64,000 nucleotides of DNA. Origin: Longimicrobiales bacterium (GTDB taxonomy: Bacteria; Gemmatimonadota; Gemmatimonadetes; Longimicrobiales; RSA9). Of this stretch, positions 15,888 through 32,272 are shown piece after piece. The stretch is from the NCBI GenBank assembly GCA_035461245.1, contig DATHVP010000008.1:6000-69999 (forward strand), in the 5' to 3' direction. A program made the position numbers and the translations under genes. The notes below the pieces were generated by a model. It saw only the letters and a program-made list of their open reading frames with translations, did no database searches and had not been told where the DNA came from. Each line of letters begins with the position of its first letter. Position 1 is the first letter of the stretch.

Positions 15888-15982
15888 GGCCAGTCCCCGC
15901 ACAAGGTTCGGTATGCCTCCCGACGGCGCTCCCGGTCGTAAAATCATACCTTTAGGTGCGAAATCAAACACGGGAGGATTTC

Positions 15983-16993
15983 ATGACGAACATGCGAACG
16001 ATAATGGCTGGTACGGCTGCGGCCGTGGTGATTGGAACGGCGGGCTACGCCATGACGACGCAAGGCAGTGAGGAAGTGGAGTACACTGATTTCGGCGTGG
16101 TGACCACCACAACCGATCCAGCGTGGGATGCGCGGGTCATGCCGGCGTCCTCGGCGCCGGTGAAGGAGTTCCGCATCCCGATGACGCACGTGGAGATCGA
16201 GATTGCGCCGGGCGTGACGTACGAGGGCTGGACCTTCGGCAACACGGTGCCGGGCCCGACCATCCGGGTGAACCAGGGGGACCTGGTGAAGGTGACGCTG
16301 GTGAATGAGAGCGACATGCCACACAGCATTGACTTCCACTCGGCGCGGATTCCCATGGACGTGGCGTTCAAGACCATTGGCCCGGGCGAGGAGCTGGAGT
16401 TCGAGTTCGTGGCAAACGATCCGGGCGCGTTCATGGTGCACTGCGGCACGCCGCCGGTCCTGATGCACATCATGCAGGGCATGTACCTGCCGATCATCGT
16501 GGACCCGAAGGGTGGCTGGGGCACGCGTGCGGACAAGGAGTTCGTCATCGTGCAGAGCGAGTTCTACACCCAGGAGCGGGATGGCAGGCATGTCCCCGAC
16601 TGGAACGCTGCGCTGGCGAAGAACGCGTCATATGTGGTGTTCAACGGCCGTGCGGACCAGTACCAGGCCGCGCCGCTGGAGGTGGACGTGGGTGACCGGG
16701 TCCGGTTCTTCGTGGTCAACGCCGGCCCGAGCGTGCACAGTGACTTCCACGTGGTGGGCGCCGTTTTCGACCGGGTCTACCCTGGCGGCAATCCGAAGCA
16801 CGTCATCGAGACGGTCCAGACGTGGACGGTCCCGGTGGGTGGCGGTGCGGTGTTCGAGACTGAGTTCAATGCCGGCGCCAGCGGTGAGGGTGTATACGCC
16901 TTCGTGACACATGCCTTCGCGGACGCGAGCAAGGGTGCGGTGGGCCTGGTCAAGGTCGGCCAGCCGACCATCGCGGCGGGCATGTCCCACTGA
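15983..16993 (+). CDS. nirK: copper-containing nitrite reductase
   Basis: The protein has a two-cupredoxin size. Copper motifs are present: HSIDFH (T1 His, catalytic Asp, T2 His), VHCGTPPVLMHIMQGM (T2 His-T1 Cys...His...Met), DFHVVGAVFDRVY (catalytic His) and AFVTHAF (T2 His). GGGAGG lies 5 nt upstream of ATG 15983. Confidence 0.9.
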   Translation: MTNMRTIMAGTAAAVVIGTAGYAMTTQGSEEVEYTDFGVVTTTTDPAWDARVMPASSAPVKEFRIPMTHVEIEIAPGVTYEGWTFGNTVPGPTIRVNQGDLVKVTLVNESDMPHSIDFHSARIPMDVAFKTIGPGEELEFEFVANDPGAFMVHCGTPPVLMHIMQGMYLPIIVDPKGGWGTRADKEFVIVQSEFYTQERDGRHVPDWNAALAKNASYVVFNGRADQYQAAPLEVDVGDRVRFFVVNAGPSVHSDFHVVGAVFDRVYPGGNPKHVIETVQTWTVPVGGGAVFETEFNAGASGEGVYAFVTHAFADASKGAVGLVKVGQPTIAAGMSH

Positions 16994-17044
16994 GGCAGCG
17001 GGGTCGCACCGGAGACGGTGCGGCCCTCTCCATCCGGAGGATCC

Positions 17045-17512
17045 ATGAATACCCGAACCACACCGGCGCCGACGGCCTGGCGCATGATCTCACAGACGGC
17101 GGAATACGCGCTGCGGGTGGTGCTGTACCTGGCGGCGCGGCCGGCGGGCGAGCGGGTCGGCGCATCACGGGTGGCGGCAGAGCTGGGCATACCAGAGCGC
17201 TACCTCGCCCGGGTGATGAATGCGCTGGCCCGGGACGGCGTGCTCCTGTCGGCCCGGGGTGCCCAGGGTGGTTTCAGCCTGGCTGTCCTGCCAGCGGCGC
17301 TGACGCTGGGCGCGGTGGTGGCGCCGTTCGACGCGGTGGGCCAGGCCCCGCAGTGCCTGCTGCGGGAGCAGCGGTGTGACCCGTCCGATCCGTGCCTCGC
17401 CCACGAGCACTGGCACTGTATAGCCGGCGGGGTGCGGCACTTCTTCCAGACAACGACAATTGCGGACCTGCTGGGTGACGAGCTCACGTCGCCATTGGCG
17501 CTCCGGCACTAA
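17045..17512 (+). CDS. Rrf2-family transcriptional regulator (NsrR/IscR-like, three-Cys cluster site)
   Basis: The wHTH core reads ISQTAEYALRVVLYLA...ELGIPERYLARVMNALARDGVLLSARGAQGGFSL. The cluster-ligand pattern is CLLREQRCDPSDPC (C-x6-C-x5-C). A GGAGG RBS is present. Confidence 0.85.
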   Translation: MNTRTTPAPTAWRMISQTAEYALRVVLYLAARPAGERVGASRVAAELGIPERYLARVMNALARDGVLLSARGAQGGFSLAVLPAALTLGAVVAPFDAVGQAPQCLLREQRCDPSDPCLAHEHWHCIAGGVRHFFQTTTIADLLGDELTSPLALRH

Positions 17513-17528
17513 TCAGAGAGTGACGACA

Positions 17529-17729
17529 ATGAACGCAGTCGAGATAGCGCAGCTTCCGGTGAACGAGACAATCCGTCGCTACCCGTCGGCCGTTGAGCTG
17601 TTCAACCGCTACGGCATCGACGCCTGCTGTGGTGGCGACGCACCGGTCCGTGAGGCAGCCGTTCGCGATGGGGCGGACGCCGACGCACTGATGGCGGAAC
17701 TGCTGCAACTCGTGGAGGCGGGCGCGTGA
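17529..17729 (+). CDS. small ScdA_N (DUF542)-like protein
   Basis: This 66-aa protein contains VNETIRRYPSAVELFNRYGIDACCGG. This matches the N-terminal domain of RIC/ScdA/YtfE di-iron repair proteins (D-x-CCGG signature, recalled from memory), but it lacks the hemerythrin domain. Confidence 0.7.
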   Translation: MNAVEIAQLPVNETIRRYPSAVELFNRYGIDACCGGDAPVREAAVRDGADADALMAELLQLVEAGA

Positions 17730-18037
17730 GGGTGCTGTCATCAGGGCCCGGCCAGCGGGATGAGCGGCCGGCCACGGAGATCCTGCACGACGAGGCGAGT
17801 GTCCGGGTCGTGATGTTCCACCTGAAGCCAGGGCAGCAGGTGCGGCCGCACACGAGCCCCAGCAGCGTGCTGGTGACGGTGCTGTCGGGCCACGGCGAGT
17901 TCACCGGCGCAGACGACGCAACGGAGCTGAACGCCGGTGACTCCGCAGTCTATGAGCCGGGTGAGGTGCACGGCATGGTGGCCGGCACCGAGCCGTTGCG
18001 GTTCCTGGCCATTATCACCCCGCGCCCCGGAGGCTGA
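17726..18037 (+). CDS. cupin-domain protein
   Basis: The protein is 103 aa. A cupin_2-like pattern is present (FHLKPGQQVRPHTSPSSVLVTVLSGHGEF ... PGEVHGM). GTG 17726 overlaps the upstream stop (GTGA). Confidence 0.7.
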   Translation: MRVLSSGPGQRDERPATEILHDEASVRVVMFHLKPGQQVRPHTSPSSVLVTVLSGHGEFTGADDATELNAGDSAVYEPGEVHGMVAGTEPLRFLAIITPRPGG

Positions 18038-18040
18038 GCG

Positions 18041-19264
18041 ATGAAGCCGGACATTGCTGCCGCAGACTTCAGCCAGGCGCCCTACCTGGTCATCTGGGAG
18101 ACGACACGCTCGTGCGACCTGGCGTGCAAGCACTGCCGTGCAGAGGCCGTAACCAACCGGCATCCGCTTGAATTGACGACGGCGGAAGCGAAGCGGATGA
18201 TGGATGACGTCCGGCGCTTTGGCCGGCCCCTGTTCGTCCTGACCGGCGGCGACCCGCTGAAGCGGCCTGACGTGGTTGAACTGGTGGAGTACGGCACGTC
18301 CATCGGCCTGCGCATGGCGATGACGCCCTCCGGTACGCCGCTCATGACGGAGCCCGTGCTGCGGCAGCTGAAGGACGCCGGCCTGGCGCGGCTGGCCGTG
18401 AGCCTGGACGGCTCGACGCCCGCCATCCATGACGCGTTCCGCGGCGTAGACGGCTCCTGGGACTGGACCATCAACATGCTGCGGACCGCCCGCGAGATCG
18501 GGCTTACGACGCAGGTCAACACCACCGTCAGCCTGCACAACCTCACGGATTTCGACGCCCTCTGCGAGCTCATGGTAGGGCTGGGCATCACGCTGTGGAG
18601 CGTCTTCTTCCTGGTCCCCACGGGCCGTGCCAAGGCCGACGACGTGGCCAGCGCTGACGAGTTCGAGCATGTCTTCAACCGGATGTACGACCTGTCGAAG
18701 ACGGCGCCGTTCGACATCAAGAGCACGGCGGCGCCGCAGTACCGGCGAGTGATCCTGCAGCGGCAGGTCGCGGAGCGGCGGGCGGGCGGGCGGTCCGAGG
18801 CTCCGTCGCCCATGACCGCCGGGGTCGGCTTCTCGCTGGCCGACGGGGTCGGGCGTTCGAAGGGTGTAAATGATGGCGACGGATTCGTCTTCATCAGCCA
18901 CACCGGCGCCATCTGCCCGTCAGGCTTCCTGCCGCTGGCAGCGGGCAATGTGCGCATGCACGACGTGGTGGATGTCTACCGCAATTCACCGATGTTCGTG
19001 GCGCTGCGGGATCGTGACCAGTTGAAGGGCAAGTGCGGCGTCTGCGAATACCGCGACGTGTGCGGCGGCAGCCGCGCCCGGGCCTACGCCGTGACCGGTG
19101 ACATGCTGGAGTCGGAGCCGTTCTGCAGCCACGTCCCCGCGCGCTACCGGCGCATGGTGGAAGAAGGGACGGCGGAGCCCGTGGAGGAGTACTTCGCCCG
19201 GCGCACTGGCGGCCCCGCCGCCGGTCCGGCGACGGTACCCGTGGCCATGGCCAGCCGTCGCTGA
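18041..19264 (+). CDS. radical SAM/SPASM-domain enzyme (NirJ/AhbD-like)
   Basis: The CDLACKHC (Cx3Cx2C) radical SAM motif lies in WETTRSCDLACKHCRA, and GGDPL is present. The C-terminal Cys-rich SPASM-like region reads KGKCGVCEYRDVCGGSRARAY...PFCSH. Confidence 0.85.
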   Translation: MKPDIAAADFSQAPYLVIWETTRSCDLACKHCRAEAVTNRHPLELTTAEAKRMMDDVRRFGRPLFVLTGGDPLKRPDVVELVEYGTSIGLRMAMTPSGTPLMTEPVLRQLKDAGLARLAVSLDGSTPAIHDAFRGVDGSWDWTINMLRTAREIGLTTQVNTTVSLHNLTDFDALCELMVGLGITLWSVFFLVPTGRAKADDVASADEFEHVFNRMYDLSKTAPFDIKSTAAPQYRRVILQRQVAERRAGGRSEAPSPMTAGVGFSLADGVGRSKGVNDGDGFVFISHTGAICPSGFLPLAAGNVRMHDVVDVYRNSPMFVALRDRDQLKGKCGVCEYRDVCGGSRARAYAVTGDMLESEPFCSHVPARYRRMVEEGTAEPVEEYFARRTGGPAAGPATVPVAMASRR

Positions 19265-19289: not shown

Positions 19290-19322
19290 CGGGGAGCCTG
19301 CCGCGAGACGGCCGGCTCCCCG
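19290..19322. terminator. hairpin between convergent genes (cggggagcc-N15-ggctccccg)
   Basis: A 9-bp GC-rich stem lies between the radical SAM stop (19264) and the cytochrome c stop (19328). It is followed by ttgtat on the plus strand. Confidence 0.4.
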
Positions 19323-19327
19323 TTGTA

Positions 19328-19747
19328 TCAGCGGCTGACGGCGTAGACGTAGGCCGCGACCTGACGGATCTGGTCCTCGGAGAGGGGTGCGCCGCCCATG
19401 GCCGGCATGGGTGCAGGGAACTGCACGGGCTGAGCGACGCCCTCGCGGATGACCCTGACGATCTCGTCGAACGAGCCGTCGGTGTTCAGCCACTCCCCGT
19501 CATTCAGGGCTGGCGCCAGTGGGCTGCCCGTGGCGTTCCTGCCATGACAGGTGAAGCACGTCTGCTGGTTGAACACCTGCTGGCCGGCCGCCACCATGTC
19601 CTGCGTCACGCCTTCCGGCAGTTCCACCATGGGCAGCGCACCGTTGCCTGCAGCACTCCCCCCCGTGGTGCCCGGCGTGCTGTCGTCTGCGCCACCGCAC
19701 GCGGTGACCATGGCTACCGCCATCAGCGCGGCTGTACGTCGCAACAT
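19328..19747 (-). CDS. monohaem class I cytochrome c, probable lipoprotein
   Basis: The signal reads MLRRTAALMAVAMVTACGG (lipobox). A single CFTCH motif is present, with a distal PMPAMGG Met region. The size is 139 aa. Confidence 0.85.
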   Translation of the reverse strand: MLRRTAALMAVAMVTACGGADDSTPGTTGGSAAGNGALPMVELPEGVTQDMVAAGQQVFNQQTCFTCHGRNATGSPLAPALNDGEWLNTDGSFDEIVRVIREGVAQPVQFPAPMPAMGGAPLSEDQIRQVAAYVYAVSR

Positions 19748-19794
19748 TGCGTCTTCCTCCAGTTGTTACAGGATGGCCCGCCATCCGGCGGGTC

Positions 19795-20250
19795 TCAGAA
19801 CCGTTCTCCGCGAGCCTCCCGCAGGTGGCTGCCGACGGGACGGATACGAGGCCACATGGCCACGAAATACACGGCAATGCCCACGACCTGGCCAAGACCC
19901 CCGGCCACGATGATCCATGGCAGCACCGTGGCCTCGCTCCAGGCGCGGGCCGCCTCCGCGACGAAGCGGGCGCCGGTGGCGAGGGCGAGGACCCAGTAGG
20001 CGATGCTGACACGCCCGGGTGAATAGAGCGTGTCGTCCTTCGGCGGCCGCGGGAACAGCCACAGGGCTACGCCGAAGATGAGGAACATGACGAAGCCTAC
20101 GAGTATGGCGTGGGCGTGGGCCGACACGAGGTGCGGATGCGGCCAGACCCCGAACAGCTCGCGTCGCACCAGGAGCCATGCACCCAGGACGAGCCCGGCA
20201 AAGAGGAAGCCGATGCCCGTCTTGATGAAGCGGCGTACGAGAGTGTACAT
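19795..20250 (-). CDS. hypothetical 4-TM membrane protein with a HAHA motif
   Basis: There are four hydrophobic segments. The motif SAHAHAILVGFVMFLIFGVALWLFP resembles motifs repeated in the 12-TM protein at 22565-23872. Confidence 0.5.
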   Translation of the reverse strand: MYTLVRRFIKTGIGFLFAGLVLGAWLLVRRELFGVWPHPHLVSAHAHAILVGFVMFLIFGVALWLFPRPPKDDTLYSPGRVSIAYWVLALATGARFVAEAARAWSEATVLPWIIVAGGLGQVVGIAVYFVAMWPRIRPVGSHLREARGERF

Positions 20251-20265
20251 GGCTCCTGCAGAGGC

Positions 20266-20508
20266 TCAGGAGGCCCTGGTCACGAGCACGCGCCAGGTCT
20301 CAGGGCCGTCCTCCAGGTACTCGAAGGCGAAGCTGTCGTCGCCCCGGGTGGCGCGCAGGGTGTAGTACATGCACTTCGGGTCATGGTCCACGGTCAGGCG
20401 CATGGCCTGGCCGGCAGGCAGGGCTTCGTACGCGTCCATGATCCGGTCGTACCTGTCCTTCGGTTCTACTGCGCGGACGTCCACGTCCACGGGTGTGGCA
20501 ATGCTCAT
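20266..20508 (-). CDS. DUF2249-like small protein
   Basis: The sequence VDVDVRAVEPKDRYDRIMDAYEALPAGQAMRLTVDHDPKCMYYTL...FEYLEDGPETWRVLVTR is a paralogue of 21203-21442. The start was moved to ATG 20508, which overlaps the upstream stop (ATGA). Confidence 0.7.
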   Translation of the reverse strand: MSIATPVDVDVRAVEPKDRYDRIMDAYEALPAGQAMRLTVDHDPKCMYYTLRATRGDDSFAFEYLEDGPETWRVLVTRAS

Positions 20509-21203
20509 TGTCCCGTCCCTGTGAGTGTGAGAGGCGCGCTGGCGGCCCTGTCGCCGCTGCTGCCGCAGCCCCAGCCGCCCCGCCGGCCGAGCCAGCCTGC
20601 CCACGCGACTCGATACCTATGGGAGCTGGGCGTGACGATGAGGGGCCCTGCGTAACCGGCGAGTGCCAGCACCCGCAGGGTCGCGCCGATGCCCCGGCCG
20701 TCCTGCAGGGCCGTCTCCGGCCCGCCGCCGACCAGGCGGATGCAAACAGGACCCCCGTTGTGTCGGCTGATCCGCTCCGCATCGGAGGCCGGATCCATCA
20801 CGGAATCGTCCACCTGCCATGCGAACGGCACGGTGGCGGGGAGGAGCGGCAGCCACCCGTCCGCGGGGCCATGCATGAGTGGCAGTGCCGTGACACCCGC
20901 AGCCATCGCAACACTCGCTGCTGCCACCGCGGCCTCATTGTCGTGGCCACGGTCCAGCACCAGGGGCACCGCCAGCCGGCGCGCTACCACGGTCGCCAGT
21001 GCGGTATGGGCCTCGTCGGCCAGGATGGACGTCAGTCTGACGCCCTCGCCCAGGTCCGCGTCGTCAACATGCCCCAGGCTATCAAACGCCGTGACATCCG
21101 ACGTGCTCACCTCGAGGGCCAGCAGTCCCCGCCGGGCGCATGACTCCGCCAGTTCGGCCACAGTGGCATGTGGGTCAGCGCCGGAGCCGAGTCCGAGACG
21201 CAT
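20505..21203 (-). CDS. hypothetical protein (possibly xylose-isomerase-like TIM barrel)
   Basis: The ORF is translationally coupled on both sides. There is a weak resemblance to sugar-phosphate isomerase/epimerase folds (IRLVGGGPE...LRVLALAGYAGPLIVTP). The family assignment is not secure. Confidence 0.4.
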   Translation of the reverse strand: MRLGLGSGADPHATVAELAESCARRGLLALEVSTSDVTAFDSLGHVDDADLGEGVRLTSILADEAHTALATVVARRLAVPLVLDRGHDNEAAVAAASVAMAAGVTALPLMHGPADGWLPLLPATVPFAWQVDDSVMDPASDAERISRHNGGPVCIRLVGGGPETALQDGRGIGATLRVLALAGYAGPLIVTPSSHRYRVAWAGWLGRRGGWGCGSSGDRAASAPLTLTGTGQ

Positions 21204-21442
21204 CAGAGCGTCCGGCTGATCTGCACGGCCCACACCGTGGGGCCCTGCTCCAGGTACTCCCAGCCGAATGTGCCGGCGTGCTCGTACTCGAACTGGAACC
21301 GCAGCGGCTTCGGGTCGTGGTCGTTGACCAGGACGAATGCCTCACCCGGCTCCAGCGACTTGAACGTGTCGAAGATGGCGGGATGCTTCTCCCGCGGCGG
21401 GATGGGGCGGACGTCGAGTATGCGTGCTGTCGTGCTCATCAT
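21203..21442 (-). CDS. DUF2249-like small protein
   Basis: The sequence is ILDVRPIPPREKHPAIFDTFKSLEPGEAFVLVNDHDPKPLRFQFEYEHAGTFGWEYLEQGPTVWAVQISR. ATG 21442 overlaps the upstream stop (ATGA). Confidence 0.7.
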   Translation of the reverse strand: MMSTTARILDVRPIPPREKHPAIFDTFKSLEPGEAFVLVNDHDPKPLRFQFEYEHAGTFGWEYLEQGPTVWAVQISRTL

Positions 21443-22260
21443 GTATCTCCCGTGCGTCGAATGAACAGTCGGACGAGGTCGGGACCCTGTTCCCGGACCT
21501 CGTGCTGAAAGCCCCGCTCTTCCAGCAGCGGGATGAGGAACTGAGGCACGCGGACGTTCAGCTGCACCAGTGTGCCGCCGGGCGGCAGCTGCTCCAGTGC
21601 GGCCAGCGTCCGCATCATCGGTTCGGGCGGCTCCAGGCCGCGTACGTCGAGGACGACGACGTCGTCGGGCATGTCACCGGCGTCCTCCGCCTGCGCGGTG
21701 GCGGCCGGGGCGGCGGCCGCAGCCGTCGCACTGTAGAAGTGGATGACCCAGTCGTCGGCCGCCCGCTGCTCCGTCCAGTGCAGGAACCCCCGCTTCGCCA
21801 GCACGGCATAGAGGGGAACGGGCTCGAAGATGGCACGCAGCACGAACGCGCCGTCGTCCGGCACCTCGCGGACCGCGTCCATGATGAGGCTGAACGGCTC
21901 GCGCCCGGCGCGGAGCTCGTCCCTGACGTCCAGTGTCACCGTCCGTTCCGCCGGGATCATCGCCAGTTCCCACGGCATGGCCGCGGGCGAAGTCTTCTCC
22001 GTCAACGGTCCTCCTGTCATGTCCTCCGCTTCTTCCTCCGGCACCGGTGCACCGGCATGTTCGTTCAGGCGTGCCAGCAGTAGCGAGCAGTCCACGCCGC
22101 CCATGCGGGCGGCCTGTTCCACCGTGACCAGCCGGGTCATGATTCGCCGCATGGTCGGGTTGCGCAGGCGCTCGAACGCAGGCGACAACTCGATGAAGAC
22201 GTCAATCAGCGTCTCGTCCCCCGCCAGGACCGCCGACACCCGGTCACTGCCGGCAATCAC
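21439..22260 (-). CDS. DUF1858-like N-terminal domain fused to two DUF2249-like domains
   Basis: The N-terminus reads [50 protein letters not shown]. It is followed by [22 protein letters not shown]...FEPVPLY and then [40 protein letters not shown]. The start was set at GTG 22260, which overlaps the DUF59 stop (GTGA). Confidence 0.65.
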
Positions 22261-22568
22261 CAGCCATCTTCCTGGATGAGGCCGGGATGCCACTGGGGAT
22301 CCCAGACCAGGCATGGGTGCACGTCGCCCACGCCCTCGACGGCGTGGACCGCCTGCAGGATCGCGTTGGTGATGTGCTCCTCCAGCGGACAGCCCGGCGT
22401 CGTCAGCGTGTATGTCACGATCACCGTGGAGCCCTCCACCACGACGTCGTAGACGAGGCCCAGCGTGACGATGTCCAGGCCGATCTCGGGGTCAATGACC
22501 GTGCGCAGCGCATCCATGACCACGCGCTCGTCCGGCGTGGCGGCAACTGGCTCAGCGGGCAGCGTCAT
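22257..22568 (-). CDS. DUF59 (MIP18/SufT-like) Fe-S assembly-related protein
   Basis: The sequence is [50 protein letters not shown], containing the typical DPE...D-x-V-x-LG-L-V and TxxxCP motifs. ATG 22568 overlaps the upstream stop (ATGA). Confidence 0.8.
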
Positions 22569-23872
22569 GGGCGAATCCTCCAGAGCAGAAGCATCTGTGA
22601 TGCGACGATCGCCGTGCCCGTGACGAACACCAGCGCCGCCGCGCGGGCGGGCTGTGCCATGCCCAGGCCGATGGCAACGAGCAGGGCGGCGGCACCCGCC
22701 AGCAGCGCCGCGACCGCGGCGTTGGCCAGCGTCGCCGAGTAGAGGTCCTGAACCCGTGGCACGGGACGGCGCCCGGCCAGCGGACCGAACCGGTGGTACC
22801 ACACCAGGAACGGCACGATCTTGTAGTAGTGCGCGACGACGAACAGTGACACCGCCAGGAGGATGGCCGTCACGTACGTCACCGCCAGCACGCCGCGGTT
22901 TGCCAGGATGATGACGGGTCCAGCCAGGAGCATTGCCGCCACCAGGAACAGGAGCGCGCCGGCGGCCAGCCGCATGCCGGGATCCAGGACGCGACGGTGT
23001 CGCGTGACGTAGAATGCTCTGGCCTGCAGCAGGAACGCGCCGCACCCGGCGGCGATGAGCACCGCCGGCAGCCAGTAGCTCACCAGGCGTGGCGCATGGT
23101 GCAGGAACGCCAGCACGCCGCTACCGGAGGCGACCAGCGCTACGGCCGCCTTCGCGAAGCGGTCCTGTGCGCCATGGCTCAGCAGGAACATGGGCAGCAG
23201 CCGGTGTCCCACGCCGATCATGACCAGCAGCACCCAGCCCGCCAGCGCCACGTGCAGGTGCACGCCCAGCGCAGCGAGCCGCCCGCCGCCGAGGAAGCCC
23301 CAGCGCAGGTTGCCCGTGAGAGCCAGGCCGAGGACCAGGGTTACTGTCAGGTAGCACGTCGCCAGCGCCAGCGCCCACCACGTGACGTCCCGGCGCGTGG
23401 CCGACTTCAGTGTCGCCGCCAGGTTGCCAGCGAACAGCAGTACGCCCATGCCCATCACAACTGCTCCACCCAGCAGCAGCATCGGTCGCCCCGTCGCCAG
23501 CCCGGTGACGAATGCCAGCAGGCCGGGCACATGCAGGGCGAAGGTCACGTGCGCCAGTGTCACGGAGCGGATGGGACGGTCCAGCGCCACCGGCAGGAAC
23601 TGGTACAGCGCGCCCATGATGGACGTGGTGATCCAGCCCAGAGTGAACAGGTGGGTCAGCGCCGCCACCCGCGGCGACAGGTACTGGCCCGCCGCCAGGT
23701 CCGGCGCGTGCAATACCGCACCGGCGGCGCCCAGCAGCAGGAACCCGAGGGCAGCGGCGAAATGTTCGCCCGGCAGGATGGCCGGCGGTGCCTTCGACGA
23801 CGCCGACCCCGGCAGCGGCCCGGCGGCCGCGGGGCGCGCTGCCGCACTGCCCGCCACGGTCGCCGCGTTCAT
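22565..23872 (-). CDS. hypothetical 12-TM His-rich membrane protein
   Basis: The protein is 435 aa from ATG 23872, which overlaps the ctaA stop (ATGA). There are about 12 hydrophobic helices. His-containing helix motifs recur ([23 protein letters not shown]; [25 protein letters not shown]; [15 protein letters not shown]). No family was recognised. Confidence 0.6.
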
Positions 23873-25032
23873 GGCGTCGCCTCGGCCGTGCTCCGGCCGC
23901 CATGAACGCCCACGCGGGCCGTCAGCACCCGGTGCAGCCAGCAGAGCCACACGCCGAACAGCACCATCGCCATGCCCTGGTGGATGACACCGAGGCTCAC
24001 CGGCACCAGCAGAAGCAGCGTGGCGATGCCCAGGGCGTACTGCACCGCCATCAGCACCGCAAGCGCACCGGCATACCGCCGGGATGCCGGGTCCGTCACC
24101 CCCTCGCGCACCAGCATGAACAGCCCCACCACTGCCACAGCCAGCAGCGTCCCCAGCACCCTGTGCACCCACTGCACCGATGCGGGGTTCGCAACAAAGT
24201 TGTAGAGCACGGGCTCCAGGTGTAACAGCTCCGGCGGCGTCAGCCGCCCGCCCATCAGCGGGAATGTCGGGTAGAACTTGCCCGCCCGCAGACCGGCAAC
24301 GAAGGCGCCCCATACCACCTGCGCCGCCAGCAGCACCCCCGTCACTGCCAGGCCCCGCAGCATCATGCGGCGGGCAGCTGCCGGGAACTGCGCGGCGCCG
24401 CGGGTCGCCAGGTCACGGGCCAGCCAGACGGCCCAGCCGAAGATCAGGAACGCCAGGCTCAGGTGCGCCGCCAGCCGGAAATGGCTCACGCTCGGTCGGT
24501 CCACCAGCCCGCTCTTCACCATGAGCCAGCCCATCACCCCCTGCGCAGCGCCCAGGCCGAACAGCAGCAGCGCGCGACGCAGCATCGGACTCGTGAACCA
24601 GCCCCGCACCCAGAACACGACGAACGGCACCAGGAACACCAGCCCGATGCCACGCGCCAGCAGGCGATGGAAGTATTCCCAGAAGAAGATGAACTTGAAC
24701 TCCGACAGCGTCATGCCCTGACGCCACGTCTGGTACTCCGGGAACTGCCGGTACAGCTCAAACGTCGCCTGCCACTGCGCATCCGTCAGTGGCGGGATCA
24801 CGCCCATCAGCGGCTGCCAGTCTACTATGGAGAGCCCCGACAGCGTCAGCCGCGTTATGCCACCCACGATCAGCACCGCGAACGTCATGGCCGCAACGCT
24901 CCACAGCCACACCCGCATCGGCCGCCGCCGCGACTCCGGGATCGCCTCCGTCCAGTGTCCCGCCGACGCCACCGGTCCCGCTTCCGCCACCAGCGGCATC
25001 ACTGCTGCCTGCCCCATGTTCATCCGCTCCAT
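23869..25032 (-). CDS. ctaA: haem A synthase (COX15/CtaA family)
   Basis: COX15-type motifs are present (VGGITRLTLSGLSIVDWQPLMGVIPP, EFKFIFFWEYFHRLLAR, HRVLGTLL, VIHQGMAM). There are about 8 TM helices. Confidence 0.85.
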   Translation of the reverse strand: MERMNMGQAAVMPLVAEAGPVASAGHWTEAIPESRRRPMRVWLWSVAAMTFAVLIVGGITRLTLSGLSIVDWQPLMGVIPPLTDAQWQATFELYRQFPEYQTWRQGMTLSEFKFIFFWEYFHRLLARGIGLVFLVPFVVFWVRGWFTSPMLRRALLLFGLGAAQGVMGWLMVKSGLVDRPSVSHFRLAAHLSLAFLIFGWAVWLARDLATRGAAQFPAAARRMMLRGLAVTGVLLAAQVVWGAFVAGLRAGKFYPTFPLMGGRLTPPELLHLEPVLYNFVANPASVQWVHRVLGTLLAVAVVGLFMLVREGVTDPASRRYAGALAVLMAVQYALGIATLLLLVPVSLGVIHQGMAMVLFGVWLCWLHRVLTARVGVHGGRSTAEATP

Positions 25033-25177: not shown

Positions 25178-25687
25178 TCATGGGCGGTACGGCGTCCGGG
25201 CGTGGAGGCGACCGGCATCGGCGTCAAGCGTCACGAGGCCGACGTCGCCGGGGCCGAGGAGCAGGGTGGTATCCAGTGCGGCGAGGATGGTGGAGCCATT
25301 GGCCGCGGCCCGTATGAGCTGGAGCTGGATGCTGTGCCGACCGGGCTCGAGGTTCCTTTCCTCGAGGACAATGAGGGGGCGATCGCCCTTGAAGCCGCCG
25401 CGCACCAGGTGCAGGGTGTCCGCGACGCTCCCATCCACGGCCAGTACGATCATGAAGTCGGACTCGTCCCGGGTGCACACCTCCGGCGACCGCATGTGGA
25501 CGGGCAGGCTCTCGAGTTCCTCCTGGCTCCGTGGCCGGCAGTCCTCGGTGGCGGGCACAGTCATGCGCCATGAGAACCGGAGCGCGGCGTCGTCAGCGCC
25601 GGGTGCCGAGTAGCCGGGTGCGCGGGCCAGCCCGGCGATGGGCAGGGTGAGCAGTGCGGCGGAAAGGAACACACGCACGCGCTTCAT
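25178..25687 (-). CDS. hypothetical secreted protein
   Basis: The signal peptide reads MKRVRVFLSAALLTLPIAGLARA. ATG 25687 overlaps the upstream stop (ATGA). No family was recognised. Confidence 0.45.
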   Translation of the reverse strand: MKRVRVFLSAALLTLPIAGLARAPGYSAPGADDAALRFSWRMTVPATEDCRPRSQEELESLPVHMRSPEVCTRDESDFMIVLAVDGSVADTLHLVRGGFKGDRPLIVLEERNLEPGRHSIQLQLIRAAANGSTILAALDTTLLLGPGDVGLVTLDADAGRLHARTPYRP

Positions 25688-27288: not shown

Positions 27289-27405
27289 ACGACAGTGGTG
27301 TCGGGCTCACCCCTACATCACGTAGGGGAACCTCCCTATGGCGCACCACCGTCCGCCGGTATTATATCATATTCGCATGAGAAACTCAAATGGACGGCAG
27401 GGACC

Positions 27406-27915
27406 ATGCTGAATCAGTCGGCAGACCACGCGTTGAGGGCCGTGCTGTTCGTGGCACGGCAGGCGGAGGACGTGCCATGCAGTGCCGACCTCATCGCGTC
27501 GACGCTGGACGTGCCGCGCAACTATCTGGGCAAGCTGTTGAACACGCTGGCGCAGACGGGCGTGCTGCTGTCCACGCGGGGGCCGCGGGGCGGCTTCCGG
27601 CTGGCGATGGACCCGGCGTCACTGCCGCTGGCGCGGATCGTTGAGCCGTTTCACCGGCTGCCGGAGCGACGCACGTGCCTGCTGGGCAACGGGGCGTGTG
27701 ATCCGGACAACCCGTGTGAGTCGCACGACCGGTGGCAGGCGATGACGGACCATCTCACGCAGTTCTTCGAGCGGACGACGGTGGCGACGATGCTGAGCGG
27801 CCACGGCGACGACGACGGCACCACCGTCATCATGCATCGGACCCGGCCGGCGCGGGACGTTGGCGCCACATCGCCGACATCCGGCCAGGGGTCGTACCGG
27901 CGTACGGGGACATAG
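27406..27915 (+). CDS. Rrf2-family transcriptional regulator (second NsrR/IscR-like paralogue)
   Basis: The wHTH core reads MLNQSADHALRAVLFVARQ...LDVPRNYLGKLLNTLAQTGVLLSTRGPRGGFRL. The cluster pattern is CLLGNGACDPDNPC (C-x6-C-x5-C). The start was moved from 26323 to ATG 27406, after an AT-rich intergenic island. Confidence 0.85.
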   Translation: MLNQSADHALRAVLFVARQAEDVPCSADLIASTLDVPRNYLGKLLNTLAQTGVLLSTRGPRGGFRLAMDPASLPLARIVEPFHRLPERRTCLLGNGACDPDNPCESHDRWQAMTDHLTQFFERTTVATMLSGHGDDDGTTVIMHRTRPARDVGATSPTSGQGSYRRTGT

Positions 27916-27947
27916 CAGGGATCCACCTATCAACTGGGGAGAGGACA

Positions 27948-28124
27948 ATGGCGAAGCTGCCGGGAAGCGACCACACGACGACGCCGGACGAGATACCGCT
28001 GGGCCAGCGGCTGTATGACAACTGGCTGCTGCTGATGATAGCCGGCATCGTCATCATGGCGGTGATCTACACGGGGTGGGGCATGTGGGAAATCGCGAAT
28101 CTTCCGACCTCGACACTGCCATGA
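27948..28124 (+). CDS. small single-TM protein, possible oxidase subunit IIa-like
   Basis: The protein is 58 aa with one TM helix (WLLLMIAGIVIMAVIYTGWGMW). A GGGGAGAGGA RBS is present. Its stop overlaps the subunit II start (ATGA). Confidence 0.45.
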   Translation: MAKLPGSDHTTTPDEIPLGQRLYDNWLLLMIAGIVIMAVIYTGWGMWEIANLPTSTLP

Positions 28125-28735
28125 GTGAACACGGGAAGCAGGACAACGGGGAGACGATGCACACGGGCATGGTCGCGCCGAAGGGGCGCTGGTGGGTGCC
28201 TGCGCACAAGTCGGAGAAGGTATGGTTCGCCATTGCCTTCGCCTGGTGCATGGTACTGTTCGCCATGATGCCGCTGTGGCACTGGAAGGGCGGCCAGAAC
28301 CCGACGGGCATCCGGGCGAAGGTGGACCCGGTGGAGTTCCGGGCGCGGGTGGACCAGTTCGTGGACGACTACCAGGTGGACGTGCTGAACGGGTTCCCGG
28401 TGGTGGAGCCTCCGCCGGGAAGTGACATCTACCTGATGGGGCGGATGTGGAGCTGGTATCCGGTGCTGAAGCTGCGCAAGGGCGTGGAGTACACGCTGCA
28501 CCTGTCGTCCATCGACGTGAACCACGGCTTCTCCCTGTACCCGGTGAACATCAATTTCCAGGTCGTTCCGGGCTACAACTACGGGCTGAAGATCGTGCCC
28601 ACGGAGGCGGGCGAGTTCGGCATCATCTGCAATGAGTTCTGCGGCATCGGGCATCACATGATGCTGGGCCGGGTGATCGTAACGAATGAGGACGGGTCCA
28701 TGCCCGGCACAACGACAGTCGCGGAGGTGCACTGA
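28121..28735 (+). CDS. haem-copper oxidase subunit II, CuA-type (B-family-like, no cytochrome c domain)
   Basis: There is one TM helix and a cupredoxin domain. The CuA ligands are VNHGFSL and CNEFCGIGHHMM (H...C-x-E-x-C-G-x2-H-x2-M). Confidence 0.9.
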   Translation: MSEHGKQDNGETMHTGMVAPKGRWWVPAHKSEKVWFAIAFAWCMVLFAMMPLWHWKGGQNPTGIRAKVDPVEFRARVDQFVDDYQVDVLNGFPVVEPPPGSDIYLMGRMWSWYPVLKLRKGVEYTLHLSSIDVNHGFSLYPVNINFQVVPGYNYGLKIVPTEAGEFGIICNEFCGIGHHMMLGRVIVTNEDGSMPGTTTVAEVH

Positions 28736-30495
28736 TGACGACGACGGTAGCCGACCGGCCGCACGGACGTGCGCCATTGAAGGAATGGGCGTTCCGGACC
28801 TGCGGCGTGACCGGGCTGAAGCTCGACCGGCAGGGCGAACTGCTCATCAAGGCGCATGCGGTGGTGGCCACGGTCATGCTGCTCATCGGCGGCATCAGCG
28901 CGCTGCTGATCCTGCTGACGCGCTGGCAGACGGTGCACCTGCTGGACCCCGTGATGTTCTACCGCGTGCTCACGGCGCACGGCCTCACGATGCTCGTCTT
29001 CTTCATCATCTTCTTCGAGATGGCGGTCCTCTACTTCGCCGCGGGGCCGATGCTGAACAGCCGCATCGCCGCGCCGAAGTTGGGGTGGTTCAACTTCGCG
29101 CTGATGCTGACGGGCGCGACGCTGGCGGAGGTCATGATCTGGACGGGCAAGGCCGACGTCCTCATGACGTCGTACATCCCTCTGCGGGCGGATCCGCTGT
29201 ACTACCTGGGCATCATACTGTTTGCGGTAGGTGCACTGCTGGTCTGCTTCCAGTTCTTTGCCACGCTGGTCGTGGCGAAGCGGGAGCGCACCTACGAGGG
29301 CTCGCTGCCGCTCATCACCTACGGCGCGGTTACGGCGGCCATTATCGCCGTCATCACGCTGCTGCACGGCGCCGCGACCTACATTCCCACGTTCCTCTGG
29401 TCAATCGGCCTGATTGATGTGGACCCGCAGCTCTACCGGATGCTGTGGTGGGCACTCGGACACTCGTCGCAGCAGATCAACGTGGCCGCGATGGTGGCCA
29501 TCTGGTACCTGCTGGGCGCGCTGACGGTTGGTGCGGTGGTGCTGAACGAGAAGATCAGCCGCACGGCGTTCGTGCTGTACATCCTGTTCATCTCCATGGC
29601 CTCGGCGCACCACCTGCTGGTGGACCCGGGCTTCAGCTCTGCCTGGAAGGTGGTGAACACCAGCTACTTCATGTACATGGCGGTGCTGGCCAGCATGCTC
29701 CACGGCTTCACGGTGCCGGCGGGCGTGGAGGTGGGGCAGCGGCTGCGTGGCGTATCCCAGGGCCTGTTCGGCTGGGTGAAGAAGGCGCCCTGGGGCGATC
29801 CCGGCTTCAGCTCCCTGGTGCTCTCGGTGGTCGTGTTCGGCTTCGTCGGTGGCATCACGGGAGTCACCATCGGGACCGAGCAGATCAACATCGTCGCCCA
29901 CAACACCCTGCGCGTGCCAGGCCACTTCCACGCAACGGTGGTGAGCGGTACGACCATGGCCTTCATGGGGCTGACGTACTACCTGATCCCGCTCATCTTC
30001 CGCAGGAAGGTCGCATTCTGGCGGGCGGCACAGTTGCAGCCGTACCTGTTCGCCGGCGGCATGCTGGTGTTCTCCATCTTCATGTCATTCTCCGGCGGGT
30101 TCGGCGTGCCGCGGCGGACGTGGGACATCACGTTCAGCGGCGCGCCCTTCGAGATGGCGTTCCACCCGGTGGTGGACGGCCTGATGGCCATCATGGCGCT
30201 GGGCGGCATCGTCGCGGCCATCGGTGGCGGCCTCTACATCGTCATCACGGTGTGGTCTGTCTTCTTCGGTGAGAAGTTCACGGAGGCGGATCGTGTGCCA
30301 GGCGCGAAGGGCCTGCCCCAGGGGCTGACCCGTCCGCCGCGCCCGGTGACTGCCGCCGACGAGAAGAACCTGCCCACCGGCCGGCTCGGTCACGCGCCGG
30401 GCACCATGATCCTGGTGGCGGTGTTCCTGGCGGCCTTCGCCATCTACTACTTCGCCAACTGGAAGATCCTGTCCTTCGTCTGGAAGATCGGATAA
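28735..30495 (+). CDS. haem-copper oxidase superfamily subunit I, B-family-like, lacking the cross-link Tyr (probable NO reductase, eNOR-type)
   Basis: All six metal-ligand His are present: LTAHGLTML, WWALGHSSQQ, SAHHLL, PGHFH. The Thermus ba3 GHPIVY motif (recalled from memory) reads GHSSQQ here. There are about 13 TM helices. The start overlaps the subunit II stop (TGATG). Confidence 0.85.
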   Translation: MTTTVADRPHGRAPLKEWAFRTCGVTGLKLDRQGELLIKAHAVVATVMLLIGGISALLILLTRWQTVHLLDPVMFYRVLTAHGLTMLVFFIIFFEMAVLYFAAGPMLNSRIAAPKLGWFNFALMLTGATLAEVMIWTGKADVLMTSYIPLRADPLYYLGIILFAVGALLVCFQFFATLVVAKRERTYEGSLPLITYGAVTAAIIAVITLLHGAATYIPTFLWSIGLIDVDPQLYRMLWWALGHSSQQINVAAMVAIWYLLGALTVGAVVLNEKISRTAFVLYILFISMASAHHLLVDPGFSSAWKVVNTSYFMYMAVLASMLHGFTVPAGVEVGQRLRGVSQGLFGWVKKAPWGDPGFSSLVLSVVVFGFVGGITGVTIGTEQINIVAHNTLRVPGHFHATVVSGTTMAFMGLTYYLIPLIFRRKVAFWRAAQLQPYLFAGGMLVFSIFMSFSGGFGVPRRTWDITFSGAPFEMAFHPVVDGLMAIMALGGIVAAIGGGLYIVITVWSVFFGEKFTEADRVPGAKGLPQGLTRPPRPVTAADEKNLPTGRLGHAPGTMILVAVFLAAFAIYYFANWKILSFVWKIG

Positions 30496-31415
30496 TGACG
30501 AGAAACGCAACGACTCCTCCCGGGCTCGACCGGGAGGAGTCACAGGCCATGGCAGGGCTCATCGTCCTGTTCCTGACGACTGCCGCATGGTGGGCCCTCG
30601 CCCTCTGGCCGGTGGACGGTGCACCGGCCTGGCTGGAGCGGACCCGCTACGTCTGCTTCGGTGTTGCGGAGAACGGACTGCCCGATACCGGCGGCTGGAT
30701 CGGGCTCATTGCAGGACCGCTGGGTATGTTCAGCATCCTGGCCGTGGGCTGGAACGGCGGCATGCGCAGCCTGCTGCGGCGGACCCGGAGTTCGCGGCCG
30801 GTGGCAGCAGCCCTTACGACGCTTGCACTGGGCACCATGGTGATGGTGACGGGCGCCACGGTGCGCGTCCAGCAGGCCATGGCCGCGCCGCCGTGGCTGC
30901 AGGAGGACAGCGGGCTCCCGCCGGAGACGTATCCCCGGCTGGATCGTGAGGCGCCGGGCCTCGTACTCACGGCGCAGGACGGCGCGCTCTTCGATATCGC
31001 GTCCCTCACGGGCAGGCCGGTGCTCGTCACCTTCGCGTACGCCCACTGCACCACCATCTGCCCGGTCATCGTCATGCACGCGTTGAAGGCGCAGGAGGCA
31101 CTGCGGGGCACGGTGCATGAGCCCGCCGTCGTCGTCGTCACGCTGGACCCGTGGCGGGATCCGCCGTCCCGCCTGGCGGGCATGGCCCGGAGCTGGGGCT
31201 TCCCTGCTGAGAATGCCTGGATCCTCAGCGGCGCCATTGACGAGGTGGAGGCTGCCCTCGATGCCTGGGACGTCCCCCGCAGTCGGGATGAACGCACGGG
31301 CGAGGTGACGCATCCGTCGCTGGTGTACGTGCTGGACCGGGACGGGTCCATGGCGTACGCCTCCACCGGCGGCATTGACGCCCTCGTATCGCTGGTGGAG
31401 CGGCTCGAGCCATGA
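30495..31415 (+). CDS. SCO1/SenC-family copper chaperone with an N-terminal polytopic membrane domain
   Basis: A thioredoxin-like domain carries FAYAHCTTICP (CxxxCP) and a distal His (EVTHPSLVYVLDRDG). Three to four hydrophobic helices precede it. Confidence 0.85.
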   Translation: MTRNATTPPGLDREESQAMAGLIVLFLTTAAWWALALWPVDGAPAWLERTRYVCFGVAENGLPDTGGWIGLIAGPLGMFSILAVGWNGGMRSLLRRTRSSRPVAAALTTLALGTMVMVTGATVRVQQAMAAPPWLQEDSGLPPETYPRLDREAPGLVLTAQDGALFDIASLTGRPVLVTFAYAHCTTICPVIVMHALKAQEALRGTVHEPAVVVVTLDPWRDPPSRLAGMARSWGFPAENAWILSGAIDEVEAALDAWDVPRSRDERTGEVTHPSLVYVLDRDGSMAYASTGGIDALVSLVERLEP

Positions 31416-32272
31416 GCGCCGCGGTGCGGGCCTACTTTGAACTGACGAAGCCGGGCATCACGCTCTTCATCGGCATCACCGCCGGTGCCGGGTTCATCAC
31501 CGCGCTCGGTGGCTGGGGCATGCCCGGGCTGCTCATGGTGACACTCCTTGCAACGATGCTCATGTCGGCGGGCGCGGCCACCCTGAACCAGGTCGTGGAA
31601 CAGCGGTGGGATGCCATGATGGCGCGTACGGCTTCACGGCCCATCCCCTCGGGTCTCGTCAGTGAGCGTTCCGCCCGGGTGTTCGGGTGGGCCCTGAGCG
31701 GCATCGGCCTGGTGCTGTCACTGGCGCTGCTGCCCTGGGCGACGGCGCTGTTCCTAGTGCTCTGTCACGTCAGCTACGTCTTCGCCTATACGCCGCTCAA
31801 GCGCCGCACGCCCCTGTGCACGCTGACTGGCGCCATACCCGGTGCACTGCCGGTGCTGGCCGGGTGGGCTGCCACTGGCCAGCCCATCGACGTTGTGGCC
31901 ATCGCCCTCACGGGCGTGCTGTTCATGTGGCAGATCCCCCATTTCCTGGCCATCGGCTGGATGGCACGGGACGATTACGCCAGCGCCGGTTGCCCGATGC
32001 TGGGCGTAGTGGAGTCTACCGGCCGGGCCAGTGCGCGCATTTCGCTGTTCTATGCGTCGGCCATGCTGGTCTGCGCCCTCGTCGTGGGCGTCATGTCCGA
32101 CGCCGGCGCCGTGTTCCTGGCGACGGCGCTGGCAACGGGCGGCGCGTACGTCCTTTTCGCCTGGCGTTTCGTACAGCGGCGCGACCGGGCTCCGGCCCGT
32201 CAGCTGTTCTTCAGTTCCCTCCTCGTCCTGCCCATCCTCCTGGGCGCTCTGATGCTGGACCTGGCAGTATGA
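31412..32272 (+). CDS. ctaB: protohaem IX farnesyltransferase (haem O synthase)
   Basis: The protein is a UbiA-family polytopic protein (YFELTKPGITLF, NQVVEQRWDAMMARTASRPIPSG, YTPLKRRT, WQIPHFLAI). ATG 31412 overlaps the upstream stop (ATGA). Confidence 0.9.
   Translation: MSAAVRAYFELTKPGITLFIGITAGAGFITALGGWGMPGLLMVTLLATMLMSAGAATLNQVVEQRWDAMMARTASRPIPSGLVSERSARVFGWALSGIGLVLSLALLPWATALFLVLCHVSYVFAYTPLKRRTPLCTLTGAIPGALPVLAGWAATGQPIDVVAIALTGVLFMWQIPHFLAIGWMARDDYASAGCPMLGVVESTGRASARISLFYASAMLVCALVVGVMSDAGAVFLATALATGGAYVLFAWRFVQRRDRAPARQLFFSSLLVLPILLGALMLDLAV

Follow-up and report, generated by a model that had tools for sequence, protein, structure and literature searches.

The 64-kb window analyzed here (i.e., the whole stretch of DNA under study) is part of a Longimicrobiales (Gemmatimonadota) contig, DATHVP010000008.1, from a metagenome-assembled genome, with a GC content of ~68%. 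Our analysis centered on nine consecutive minus-strand genes that run from position 25032 to position 19328 and encode the haem A synthase CtaA, a 12-helix membrane protein (H12), a DUF59 protein, orthologues of the Thermus denitrification regulatory proteins DrpB and DrpA, a TIM barrel protein, a second single-domain DUF2249 protein, a four-helix membrane protein (H4), and a lipoprotein-type cytochrome c (Table 1). These genes sit within a nitrite and nitric oxide (NO) respiration island, with NirK encoded in a convergent unit and an eNOR-type NO reductase encoded in a divergent unit. Reading of the minus strand from 25150 to 19250 confirmed the nine genes and bore out the six overlapping junctions that a preliminary description of this DNA had listed: ATGA overlaps at 23872–23869, 22568–22565, 21442–21439 and 20508–20505, a GTGA overlap at 22260–22257, and a TGATG sequence with a 1-nt overlap at 21205–21201; the last two intergenic gaps are 15 nt and 47 nt. 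The 435-amino acid (aa) and 232-aa products are identical to NCBI proteins annotated as "hypothetical proteins" (100% identity and coverage) and the 273-aa and 103-aa products match their Thermus counterparts in length, which supports the short gene models.

Table 1. Features of the gene cluster and of the flanking units (positions in the 64-kb window)
Feature	Position	Strand	Remarks
Promoter-like site, TTGAGT-17-TATAAT	27361..27389	-	putative; TG before -10
Palindrome TATCAT-N6-ATGAGAA	27365-27383		overlaps predicted -10 of minus-strand promoter
Cytochrome b N-terminal/two 4Fe-4S/FlpD-like fusion, 534 aa	25684..27288	-	first gene; Pfam Cytochrome_B, Fer4, FlpD
169-aa protein	25178..25687	-	hydrophobic segment residues 3-21; no Pfam match
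CtaA haem A synthase, 387 aa	23869..25032	-	PF02628, E 3e-101
H12, 12-helix membrane protein, 435 aa	22565..23872	-	haem-copper oxidase subunit-I fold
DUF59/FeS_assembly_P (SufT-like) protein, 103 aa	22257..22568	-	PF01883, E 6e-20
DrpB orthologue, 273 aa	21439..22260	-	DUF1858 + 2x DUF2249 (Pfam)
DrpA orthologue, single DUF2249, 79 aa	21203..21442	-	PF10006, E 2e-30
(beta/alpha)8 TIM barrel, 232 aa	20505..21203	-	AlphaFold pLDDT 90
Invariant Cys-containing tail W-x2-W-L-G-R-R-G-G-W-G-C-G-S (WLGRRGGWGCGS)	~20559-20603	-	C-terminus of TIM barrel
Second single-domain DUF2249 protein, 80 aa	20266..20508	-	PF10006, E 9e-22
H4, membrane protein, 151 aa	19795..20250	-	single evolutionary unit of haem-copper oxidase fold
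Lipoprotein-type mono-haem cytochrome c, 139 aa	19328..19747	-	last gene; PF13442 + PF00034
GC-rich hairpin	19290..19322	-	directly after cytochrome c stop, between convergent units
Divergent unit	27406..32272	+	
Rrf2 regulator	27406-27915	+	divergent unit
Small transmembrane protein	~27948-28124	+	divergent unit
CuA subunit II	28076-28735	+	divergent unit; CuA motif CNEFCGIGHHMM
eNOR-type subunit I	28735-30495	+	divergent unit
SCO	30495-31415	+	divergent unit
CtaB	31412-32272	+	divergent unit
Convergent unit	15956..19264	+	
NirK	15956-16993	+	convergent unit
Second Rrf2 regulator	~17087-17512	+	convergent unit
Stand-alone ScdA_N protein	~17529-17729	+	convergent unit; CCGG motif
Cupin	17726-18037	+	convergent unit
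TIGR04053 radical SAM/SPASM protein	18041-19264	+	convergent unit; related to haem b synthase AhbD

H12 presented no Pfam family at E ≤ 0.1 (neither the COX1 model nor the NnrS model, PF05940, was matched), and no NCBIfam family, and its profile found no match among PDB sequences. An alignment-based AlphaFold model (pLDDT 88) contained 12 long helices, and its top 45 PDB structure matches were all catalytic subunits of haem-copper oxidases (HCO) or NO reductases (NOR), with TM-scores of 0.6–0.7. Comparison of the H12 alignment with the single sequences of the window's eNOR subunit I and of H4 gave nothing significant; the homology only emerged from family-versus-family alignment and reciprocal profile searches. 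Profile–profile alignment of the H12 family (2739 clusters at 50% identity) with eNOR subunits yielded an E-value of 5e-6 and placed H74 on the helix-2 low-spin haem ligand and H258/H259 on the CuB HH pair. Two histidines, H74 in helix 2 and H205 in helix 6, were the only ones invariant across diverse family members; the Gemmatimonadota clade showed additional invariant histidines at H207, H233, H258, H259, H348 and H360. H12 does not carry the full set of six canonical HCO histidines (helix 2, helix 6, HH in helix 7, HxH in helix 10), as the helix-10 HxH haem ligands are replaced by V-T-Y-V at that alignment position. Because this HxH is absent and only two histidines are invariant family-wide, H12 is an HCO-fold homologue that is neither a canonical oxidase nor a NOR; the oxidase-like H12 and H4 genes should not be annotated as oxidase subunits. 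As basic loops follow the even-numbered helices, the conserved basic segments of H12, including one that ends in RPVPRV, are predicted to lie on the cytoplasmic face; the histidines of helices 2, 6 and 7 would lie near the periplasmic face.

Hydropathy analysis of H4 gave three hydrophobic segments that are clear and a fourth that is weaker. The second helix carries an HxH (H45, H47), a helix-10-like motif, and the only matches in Pfam and NCBIfam were weak, below-threshold ones to COX1 and ccoN. A profile of H4 homologues found three consecutive matches within H12, and H4 was in turn matched by the H12 profile; H4 is also 31% identical (E 6e-10) to the 144-aa product of the gene that follows drpB in Thermus, which itself matches COX1 positions 344–405. 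H4 thereby corresponds to a single repeat unit, one third of the 12-helix HCO fold. The two membrane proteins had been called "His-rich" in the preliminary description, a label that holds only in a mild form: histidines make up 14 of 435 residues in H12 and 5 of 151 residues in H4 (~3.2–3.3%).

The CtaA, DUF59, DUF1858, DUF2249 and cytochrome c assignments made earlier were all confirmed by Pfam. The DUF59 protein scored 71.8 bits (Pfam cut-off 23.5) and contains the TPGCP cysteine motif; its scores fall far short of the SufT and SUF_assoc equivalog cut-offs of NCBIfam, and it is 43% identical to the 103-aa DUF59 protein encoded downstream of Thermus drpAB. An alignment covering 97% of the 273-aa protein gave 40–41% identity with the products of the genes that occupy the drpB position in Thermus. 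Thermus DrpA and the 79-aa protein share 61% identity (E 5e-33), and the KHP and DHDP motifs of the latter, with their histidines, were conserved in 46 positional orthologues; the 79-aa protein agrees with the features by which we defined DrpA, i.e., a single DUF2249 protein of ~72 aa with conserved histidines and similarity to Thermus DrpA. The second single-domain DUF2249 protein is 42% identical to Thermus DrpA; among 41 positional orthologues it conserved DHDP and CMYY, and the KHP histidine was absent. As proposed earlier, there are four DUF2249 stretches in three proteins (PF10006 scores of 118.5, 105.1 and 77.1 bits, cut-off 29.5). The motif said to be shared by all four, DHDPK...(F/W)EYLE-GP-W, describes the two single-domain proteins and not the two domains of the DrpB orthologue, which are divergent and TusA-like, with EPF/EPP in place of KHP and no DHDP.

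The 232-aa protein, left unassigned by the preliminary description, matched no Pfam or NCBIfam family, and its profile gave only marginal matches to designed proteins among PDB sequences. The best Foldseek matches to its predicted structure were sugar isomerases and epimerases of the xylose-isomerase type (TM-score ~0.56, 13–18% identity), and as modelled the protein is a divergent TIM barrel, distantly xylose-isomerase-like. No His or Asp was invariant among 56 homologues; the most conserved part of the protein is its C-terminal tail, which is predicted to be disordered.

To place these genes in a wider context, H12 relatives were searched for with one genome per species and found in 183 genomes; the best 80 were mainly Gemmatimonadota and also included contigs labelled Gaiellales, Labilithrix, Polyangiaceae, Proteobacteria and Acidobacteria. 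The scan used a narrow H12 alignment, which biased the set of loci towards Gemmatimonadota. Neighbourhoods were counted in 81 related loci (designated L001 onwards), of which 57 had at least 4.5 kb downstream of H12 and 36 were two-sided, with at least 9 kb on each side; the counts come from window-protein profiles run against the six-frame open reading frames (ORFs) of all loci, with domain-envelope coordinates, and rest on profiles and ORF handling built for this analysis. The recurring gene order was H12, DUF59, DrpB, DUF2249, TIM barrel, DUF2249, cupin, H4. DrpB was found downstream of H12 in 56 of the 57 loci, a single DUF2249 protein in 50, the TIM barrel in 37, a cupin in 22 and H4 in 12, and DUF59 was present anywhere in the locus in 56/81. 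The two-sided loci contained ScdA_N (17/36), cupin (18/36), H4 (12/36), an eNOR subunit within 10 kb (9/36) and NirK (7/36). As the arrangement recurs in dozens of genomes, it reflects more than chance, and these counts confirm that the genes form a co-conserved module rather than loose accessories, as had been anticipated. CtaA and the cytochrome c were also considered as core parts of this machinery and were rejected, since ctaA lay within 10 kb of H12 in 6/36 loci and a cytochrome c homologue was present in 1/36; both are local additions, and the earlier view of a module wired to haem A synthesis was not supported.

Clustering of all neighbouring genes identified two further recurrent families. 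An ArsR-type helix-turn-helix regulator that is weakly SufR-like and has four conserved cysteines (C-terminal motif LCHCP...PCRAE...C) was present in 23/81 loci, mostly on the same strand as H12 and within ~1.2 kb upstream of it (e.g., L056 3583–4263 and L002 9288–9995); the window lacks this regulator and encodes two of the Rrf2 type in its place. Just upstream of H12, 14 loci (e.g., L039 8940–10025) encode a P-loop NTPase of the NUBPL/Mrp iron-transfer type that carries DUF59 at its N-terminus. In Gemmatimonadota the module adjoins nirK, eNOR or RIC genes, and in L001 it is preceded by a ScdA_N-hemerythrin gene; the related loci consistently lie in a nitrogen-oxide respiration or NO-response context, in agreement with the association with NO stress proposed earlier.

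H12, DUF2249-type and DUF59 genes also cluster in Thermus, in Sinorhizobium, and in Myxococcota, Acidobacteriota and Actinomycetota contigs. In T. thermophilus, narGHJI and a transporter are followed by drpA, drpB, the 144-aa H4 homologue, a protoglobin, an H12 homologue (383 aa; profile E 4e-47) and DUF59 (103 aa). The preliminary description regarded the families as functionally uncharacterised, which is outdated, given the genetics available for DrpA and DrpB in Thermus (PMC6282519). Both genes are induced by anoxia combined with nitrate. Loss of either one alone deregulates the dnr and nar promoters; the drpAB double mutant loses nitrate dependence and makes NarG with about one tenth of the nitrate reductase activity (PMC6282519). 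DrpB is cytoplasmic and yet partly membrane-bound, with no known partner and no DNA-binding or phosphotransfer features; the mutants were kat insertions for which polarity could not be excluded, and drpAB was called bicistronic, with no mention of the downstream genes (PMC6282519). On plasmid pTHTHE1601 of Thermus thermophilus SG0.5JP17-16 (L086 7768–11566), the genes from drp to DUF59 overlap or are separated by gaps of ≤ ~50 nt. The gene arrangement suggests that Thermus drp is a six-gene unit and not a bicistronic operon, and the insertional mutants may have had polar effects.

On pSymA of S. meliloti, the region between norD/hemN/pirin and nnrS-nirK encodes a DUF2249 protein, an H12 homologue (452 aa; E 2e-34), a protein with two DUF2249 domains and a DUF59 protein; a literature search on the locus tags of this region found no paper. 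The Ralstonia solanacearum megaplasmid (L088 6974–9590) carries a DrpA-like DUF2249 gene directly upstream of the gene for the qNOR large subunit and divergent from nirK; DrpA-like genes were present in 118 Ralstonia plasmid records. In haloarchaea, DUF2249 genes of Haloferax are induced under denitrifying conditions, and the nar operon encodes a P-loop Fe–S carrier fused to DUF2249 (PMC11218638). That the neighbours differ (nar, cNOR/nirK/nnrS, eNOR, RIC, qNOR) argues for a general role in NO or nitrogen-oxide metabolism and not for a role tied to one enzyme. Overall, it is well supported that the cluster is the Gemmatimonadota version of an accessory module of denitrification islands that is found in multiple phyla, and equally well supported that its core consists of H12, a cytoplasmic DUF59 protein, DrpB and DrpA, with the divergent TIM barrel, the second DUF2249 protein and H4 as lineage additions.

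In the window, genes that accompany the adjacent eNOR-type NO reductase (the fusion gene, the 169-aa gene and ctaA) have been added to this core, and a cytochrome c gene stands at the end; together they probably make up one long transcription unit, with a putative divergent promoter shared with the Rrf2 regulator. The preliminary description had the unit run from ctaA to the cytochrome c; its nine genes stand, and the start is probably further upstream, at the promoter-like site at 27389–27361, which precedes the cytochrome b/4Fe-4S/FlpD fusion gene, the 169-aa gene and then ctaA. Both this site and the palindrome overlapping it are located where the minus-strand unit and the Rrf2-eNOR unit diverge. 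The window contains a single copy of the palindrome. L042 has a near-perfect version, TTTATCAT-N6-ATGATAAA, at the equivalent position, and related sequences occur at the same intergenic position in L053, L005 and L051; the palindrome is a candidate operator, on which the Rrf2 regulator encoded next to it could act. An operator common to the nirK promoter and the divergent eNOR promoter was also considered, and the two showed only a half-site resemblance. At the other end, the hairpin that follows the cytochrome c gene (-30.9 kcal/mol, z -3.9, with 0/200 shuffled sequences equally stable) is likely the 3′ end of the minus-strand transcript.

Surrounding genes were assigned with Pfam and NCBIfam. 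The fusion protein has an ExtP-like cytochrome b and an HdrA2-like C-terminus according to NCBIfam; its gene adjoins eNOR genes in L005, L033, L042, L051 and L053, and the 169-aa gene follows it in L033, L042, L051 and L053, divergent from the eNOR genes. These two genes belong to the eNOR-associated set, not to the core module, and the pair may serve specifically to feed electrons into eNOR. In the divergent unit, subunit I had its closest PDB relatives in the Thermus ba3 oxidase (E 2e-43), and its GHSSQQ aligned with GHPIVY of ba3, which puts a Gln at the site of the cross-linked Tyr, a replacement described as an eNOR signature (PMC8756737). The relation to ba3, the CuA subunit and this Gln point to a B-family-related HCO of the eNOR type. 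L005, L033 and L051 likewise encode the small transmembrane protein (PLGQRLYDNWLLLM...GWGMWEI) ahead of subunit II. Since eNOR has been reported to use a haem a derivative and eNOR operons often carry ctaA (PMC11214002), the ctaA gene of the window (339 bits; profile positions 1–320 of 322) is better explained by the neighbouring eNOR. The cytochrome c carries a CFTCH motif, a plausible lipobox and a signal sequence ending in VTAC.

Other arrangements of H4 and ctaA were observed in related loci. ScdA_N, cupin and radical SAM genes are grouped with H4 in a unit divergent from H12 in L005, L010 and L053, and in L005 and L010 this unit also includes ctaA. In L002–L004 (5762–9077), a second H4-like gene, ctaA and a CopD/DUF4149 gene come after nirK; these loci represent a widespread Gemmatimonadota lineage (the protein is present on 292 contigs) and have no eNOR within 10 kb, an arrangement that raises the possibility that the oxidase-like proteins themselves may use haem a.

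Our preferred interpretation, to which we assign a probability of roughly 0.45, is that the module acts under NO stress to protect or mature iron and Fe–S centres, with a signalling component, and is anchored on an NnrS-like haem protein. NnrS is a characterised member of the group of HCO-homologous membrane proteins. NnrS does not remove NO but shields the iron pool against conversion to dinitrosyl-iron (PMC9246220). H12 would bind haem through its helix-2 and helix-6 histidines near the periplasmic face, and in the Gemmatimonadota clade perhaps also a metal at the helix-6 and helix-7 histidines; like NnrS, it would handle membrane NO and not act as a true reductase. The soluble partners, namely DUF59, DrpB, DrpA, the TIM barrel and the second DUF2249 protein, would dock on the conserved basic cytoplasmic loops of H12 and would protect, repair or deliver iron and Fe–S centres for denitrification enzymes, and the status of these centres would be reported to regulators (Rrf2 here, SufR-like regulators elsewhere, DnrS/DnrT in Thermus). 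The recurrent Mrp/NUBPL-DUF59 NTPases and SufR-like regulators of related loci strengthen the Fe–S theme, to which the DUF59 protein, the haloarchaeal carrier fusion and the ScdA_N or RIC genes also belong, and a role in iron and Fe–S centres fits both these Fe–S-related neighbours and the phenotype of the Thermus double mutant. Several points weigh against this interpretation: the cofactor content assigned to H12 is a guess, with only two family-invariant histidines to go by; the TIM barrel has no conserved catalytic-type His or Asp in its 56 homologues; and H4 is present in only about one third of the two-sided loci. In addition, the related loci are mostly from Gemmatimonadota and part of the conservation is shared ancestry, and the Thermus study reports DrpA in the periplasm and takes the two Drp proteins for a sensor and transducer of nitrate, not for maturation factors (PMC6282519).

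A further reading, which we hold to be doubtful, is that the membrane partner so far missing for DrpA and DrpB is H12, either alone or together with H4; with DUF59, and with the TIM barrel or the protoglobin in some lineages, they would form a hitherto unrecognised, membrane-anchored complex of oxidase descent that couples sensing or interception of NO by haem to the protection, repair or delivery of iron and Fe–S centres for denitrification enzymes. If this is true, the Thermus "nitrate sensor" would be a six-gene system and its mutant phenotypes could in part be polar effects on the oxidase-like genes. Pure signalling, in which H12 with or without H4 would be a membrane haem sensor of NO, nitrite or nitrate that acts through DrpB and DrpA on denitrification transcription factors, with no role in maturation, is in effect the model of the Thermus authors with a candidate membrane component now supplied. 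It accounts for the deregulated dnr and nar promoters after loss of either Drp protein, for the nitrate independence of the double mutant and for a membrane-associated DrpB with no known partner; a protoglobin, a typical gas-sensor domain, lies inside the Thermus gene set, and regulators flank the module (two Rrf2 here, SufR-like ones elsewhere). However, DrpB has no DNA-binding or phosphotransfer features, DUF59, the Mrp/NUBPL NTPases, TusA-like folds and RIC are cofactor-handling families, and the enzyme of the double mutant is inactive despite normal NarG levels. A role in signalling alone is rather unlikely in our view; signalling and maturation are not mutually exclusive.

Dedicated biogenesis of the neighbouring eNOR, by insertion of haem a/As, FeB or CuA, comes near to what the preliminary description had in mind, and the ATGA overlap between ctaA and the H12 gene, the presence of eNOR, SCO and ctaB next door, the eNOR subunits within 10 kb in 9/36 loci, and the loci L002 and L030, where ctaA is co-oriented with H4, ScdA_N and cupin with no eNOR in view, all speak for it. 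These same frequencies also tell against it, as ctaA is found in only 6/36 loci and eNOR in 9/36; the regions examined in Thermus (Nar context) and Sinorhizobium (cNOR/NirK/NnrS context) contain no eNOR gene, and in Ralstonia the DrpA-like gene pairs with qNOR, which leaves this reading with a low probability. About as improbable is a catalytic role for H12 and H4 as a new enzyme that would reduce or detoxify NO, O2 or some other small molecule, with the cytochrome c as its electron source and the soluble proteins as subunits. The HCO fold of H12, the histidines that in this clade align with the haem ligand of helix 2 and the HH pair of CuB, the helix-10-like HxH that H4 could supply where H12 has none, and a periplasmic cytochrome c that appears to be co-transcribed here would fit such an enzyme; but H12 lacks the helix-10 haem ligands, conserves two histidines across its family, and occurs with H4 in about one third and with the cytochrome c in 1/36 of the loci, and NnrS, a characterised member of the HCO-homologue group, does not remove NO. 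Finally, four-base overlaps are common in bacterial operons and synteny within Gemmatimonadota could be partly inherited, so that the genes could be unrelated neighbours whose overlaps reflect compact operon packing in a GC-rich genome; given that the families are linked across at least five phyla despite altered gene order and different neighbouring enzymes, with DrpB downstream of H12 in all but one of 57 loci, we consider this explanation very improbable.

The DrpA/DrpB genetics were already known, and the link between oxidase-like membrane proteins and DUF2249 was reportedly noted in 2014. In the literature examined we found no description of the full cassette across phyla, of the tight pairing of H12 with DrpB, of a TIM barrel member with an invariant Cys tail, or of Thermus drp beyond two genes. 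DUF2249 and oxidase-like membrane proteins occur in the denitrification islands of soil, thermophilic, symbiotic and plant-pathogenic bacteria and of haloarchaea; grouping them as one conserved module, which appears with Nar, NirK, cNOR, qNOR or eNOR, provides a defined set of genes and proteins and a candidate membrane partner for DrpB. If the module does protect or mature iron centres under NO stress, it would affect the efficiency of denitrification and bear on the release of NO and N2O.

Among known systems, canonical HCO and NOR subunits (ba3, cbb3, cNOR, qNOR, eNOR) share with H12 the fold, the helix-2 His and the helix-7 HH, but are >500 aa long (H12, ~435 aa), match COX1, have the helix-10 HxH and are partnered by a subunit II. 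A further group are the HCO-homologous membrane proteins that Pei, Li, Kinch and Grishin (Protein Sci 23:1220, 2014; cited in PMC11218638) reportedly described, which are said to include four-helix, single-unit proteins and to be linked to DUF2249. H12 resembles them in its 12-helix fold and two family-conserved histidines, H4 in its single repeat unit with a helix-10 HxH, and both in their adjacent DUF2249 genes and denitrification context, whereas the Gemmatimonadota H12 differs by its extra invariant histidines, including the CuB-aligned HH; from NnrS, H12 differs in not matching the NnrS Pfam model. Compared with xylose-isomerase-like TIM barrels, which combine the (beta/alpha)8 fold with a conserved Glu/Asp/His/Glu metal site and a Pfam AP_endonuc_2 match, the 232-aa protein has the fold in its model, gives no Pfam hit and shows no invariant His or Asp among its homologues. 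The DUF59 protein shares its domain and TPGCP cysteine with SufT, and the related loci with an NTPase ahead of H12 recall the Mrp/ApbC/NUBPL carriers; unlike in these systems, no suf genes lie near the cluster and the partner is a membrane protein.

The module also shares a genomic niche with the di-iron proteins RIC/YtfE/ScdA/NorA, which act in iron-centre repair and in NO buffering, as seen from the ScdA_N genes in nearly half of the two-sided loci; the DUF1858 domain of DrpB resembles the ScdA_N-type class of helical domains, and the Ralstonia DUF2249 gene occupies the position upstream of qNOR that norA has in R. eutropha. In contrast to those proteins, the module proteins of the window have no hemerythrin domain, and iron binding by DUF2249 is putative. 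Another related system is that of Thermus, where DrpA and DrpB have the counterparts described above, DrpB with the same architecture and length, and where H4-like, H12-like and DUF59 genes directly follow drpAB, again in a nitrogen-oxide respiration island. The two differ in order (drpA-drpB-H4-protoglobin-H12-DUF59 in Thermus; H12-DUF59-drpB-drpA-TIM-DUF2249-H4 in the window), in content, as Thermus has a protoglobin and neither the TIM barrel nor the second single DUF2249 gene, and in setting, since the Thermus set adjoins nar while that of the window adjoins eNOR and nirK.

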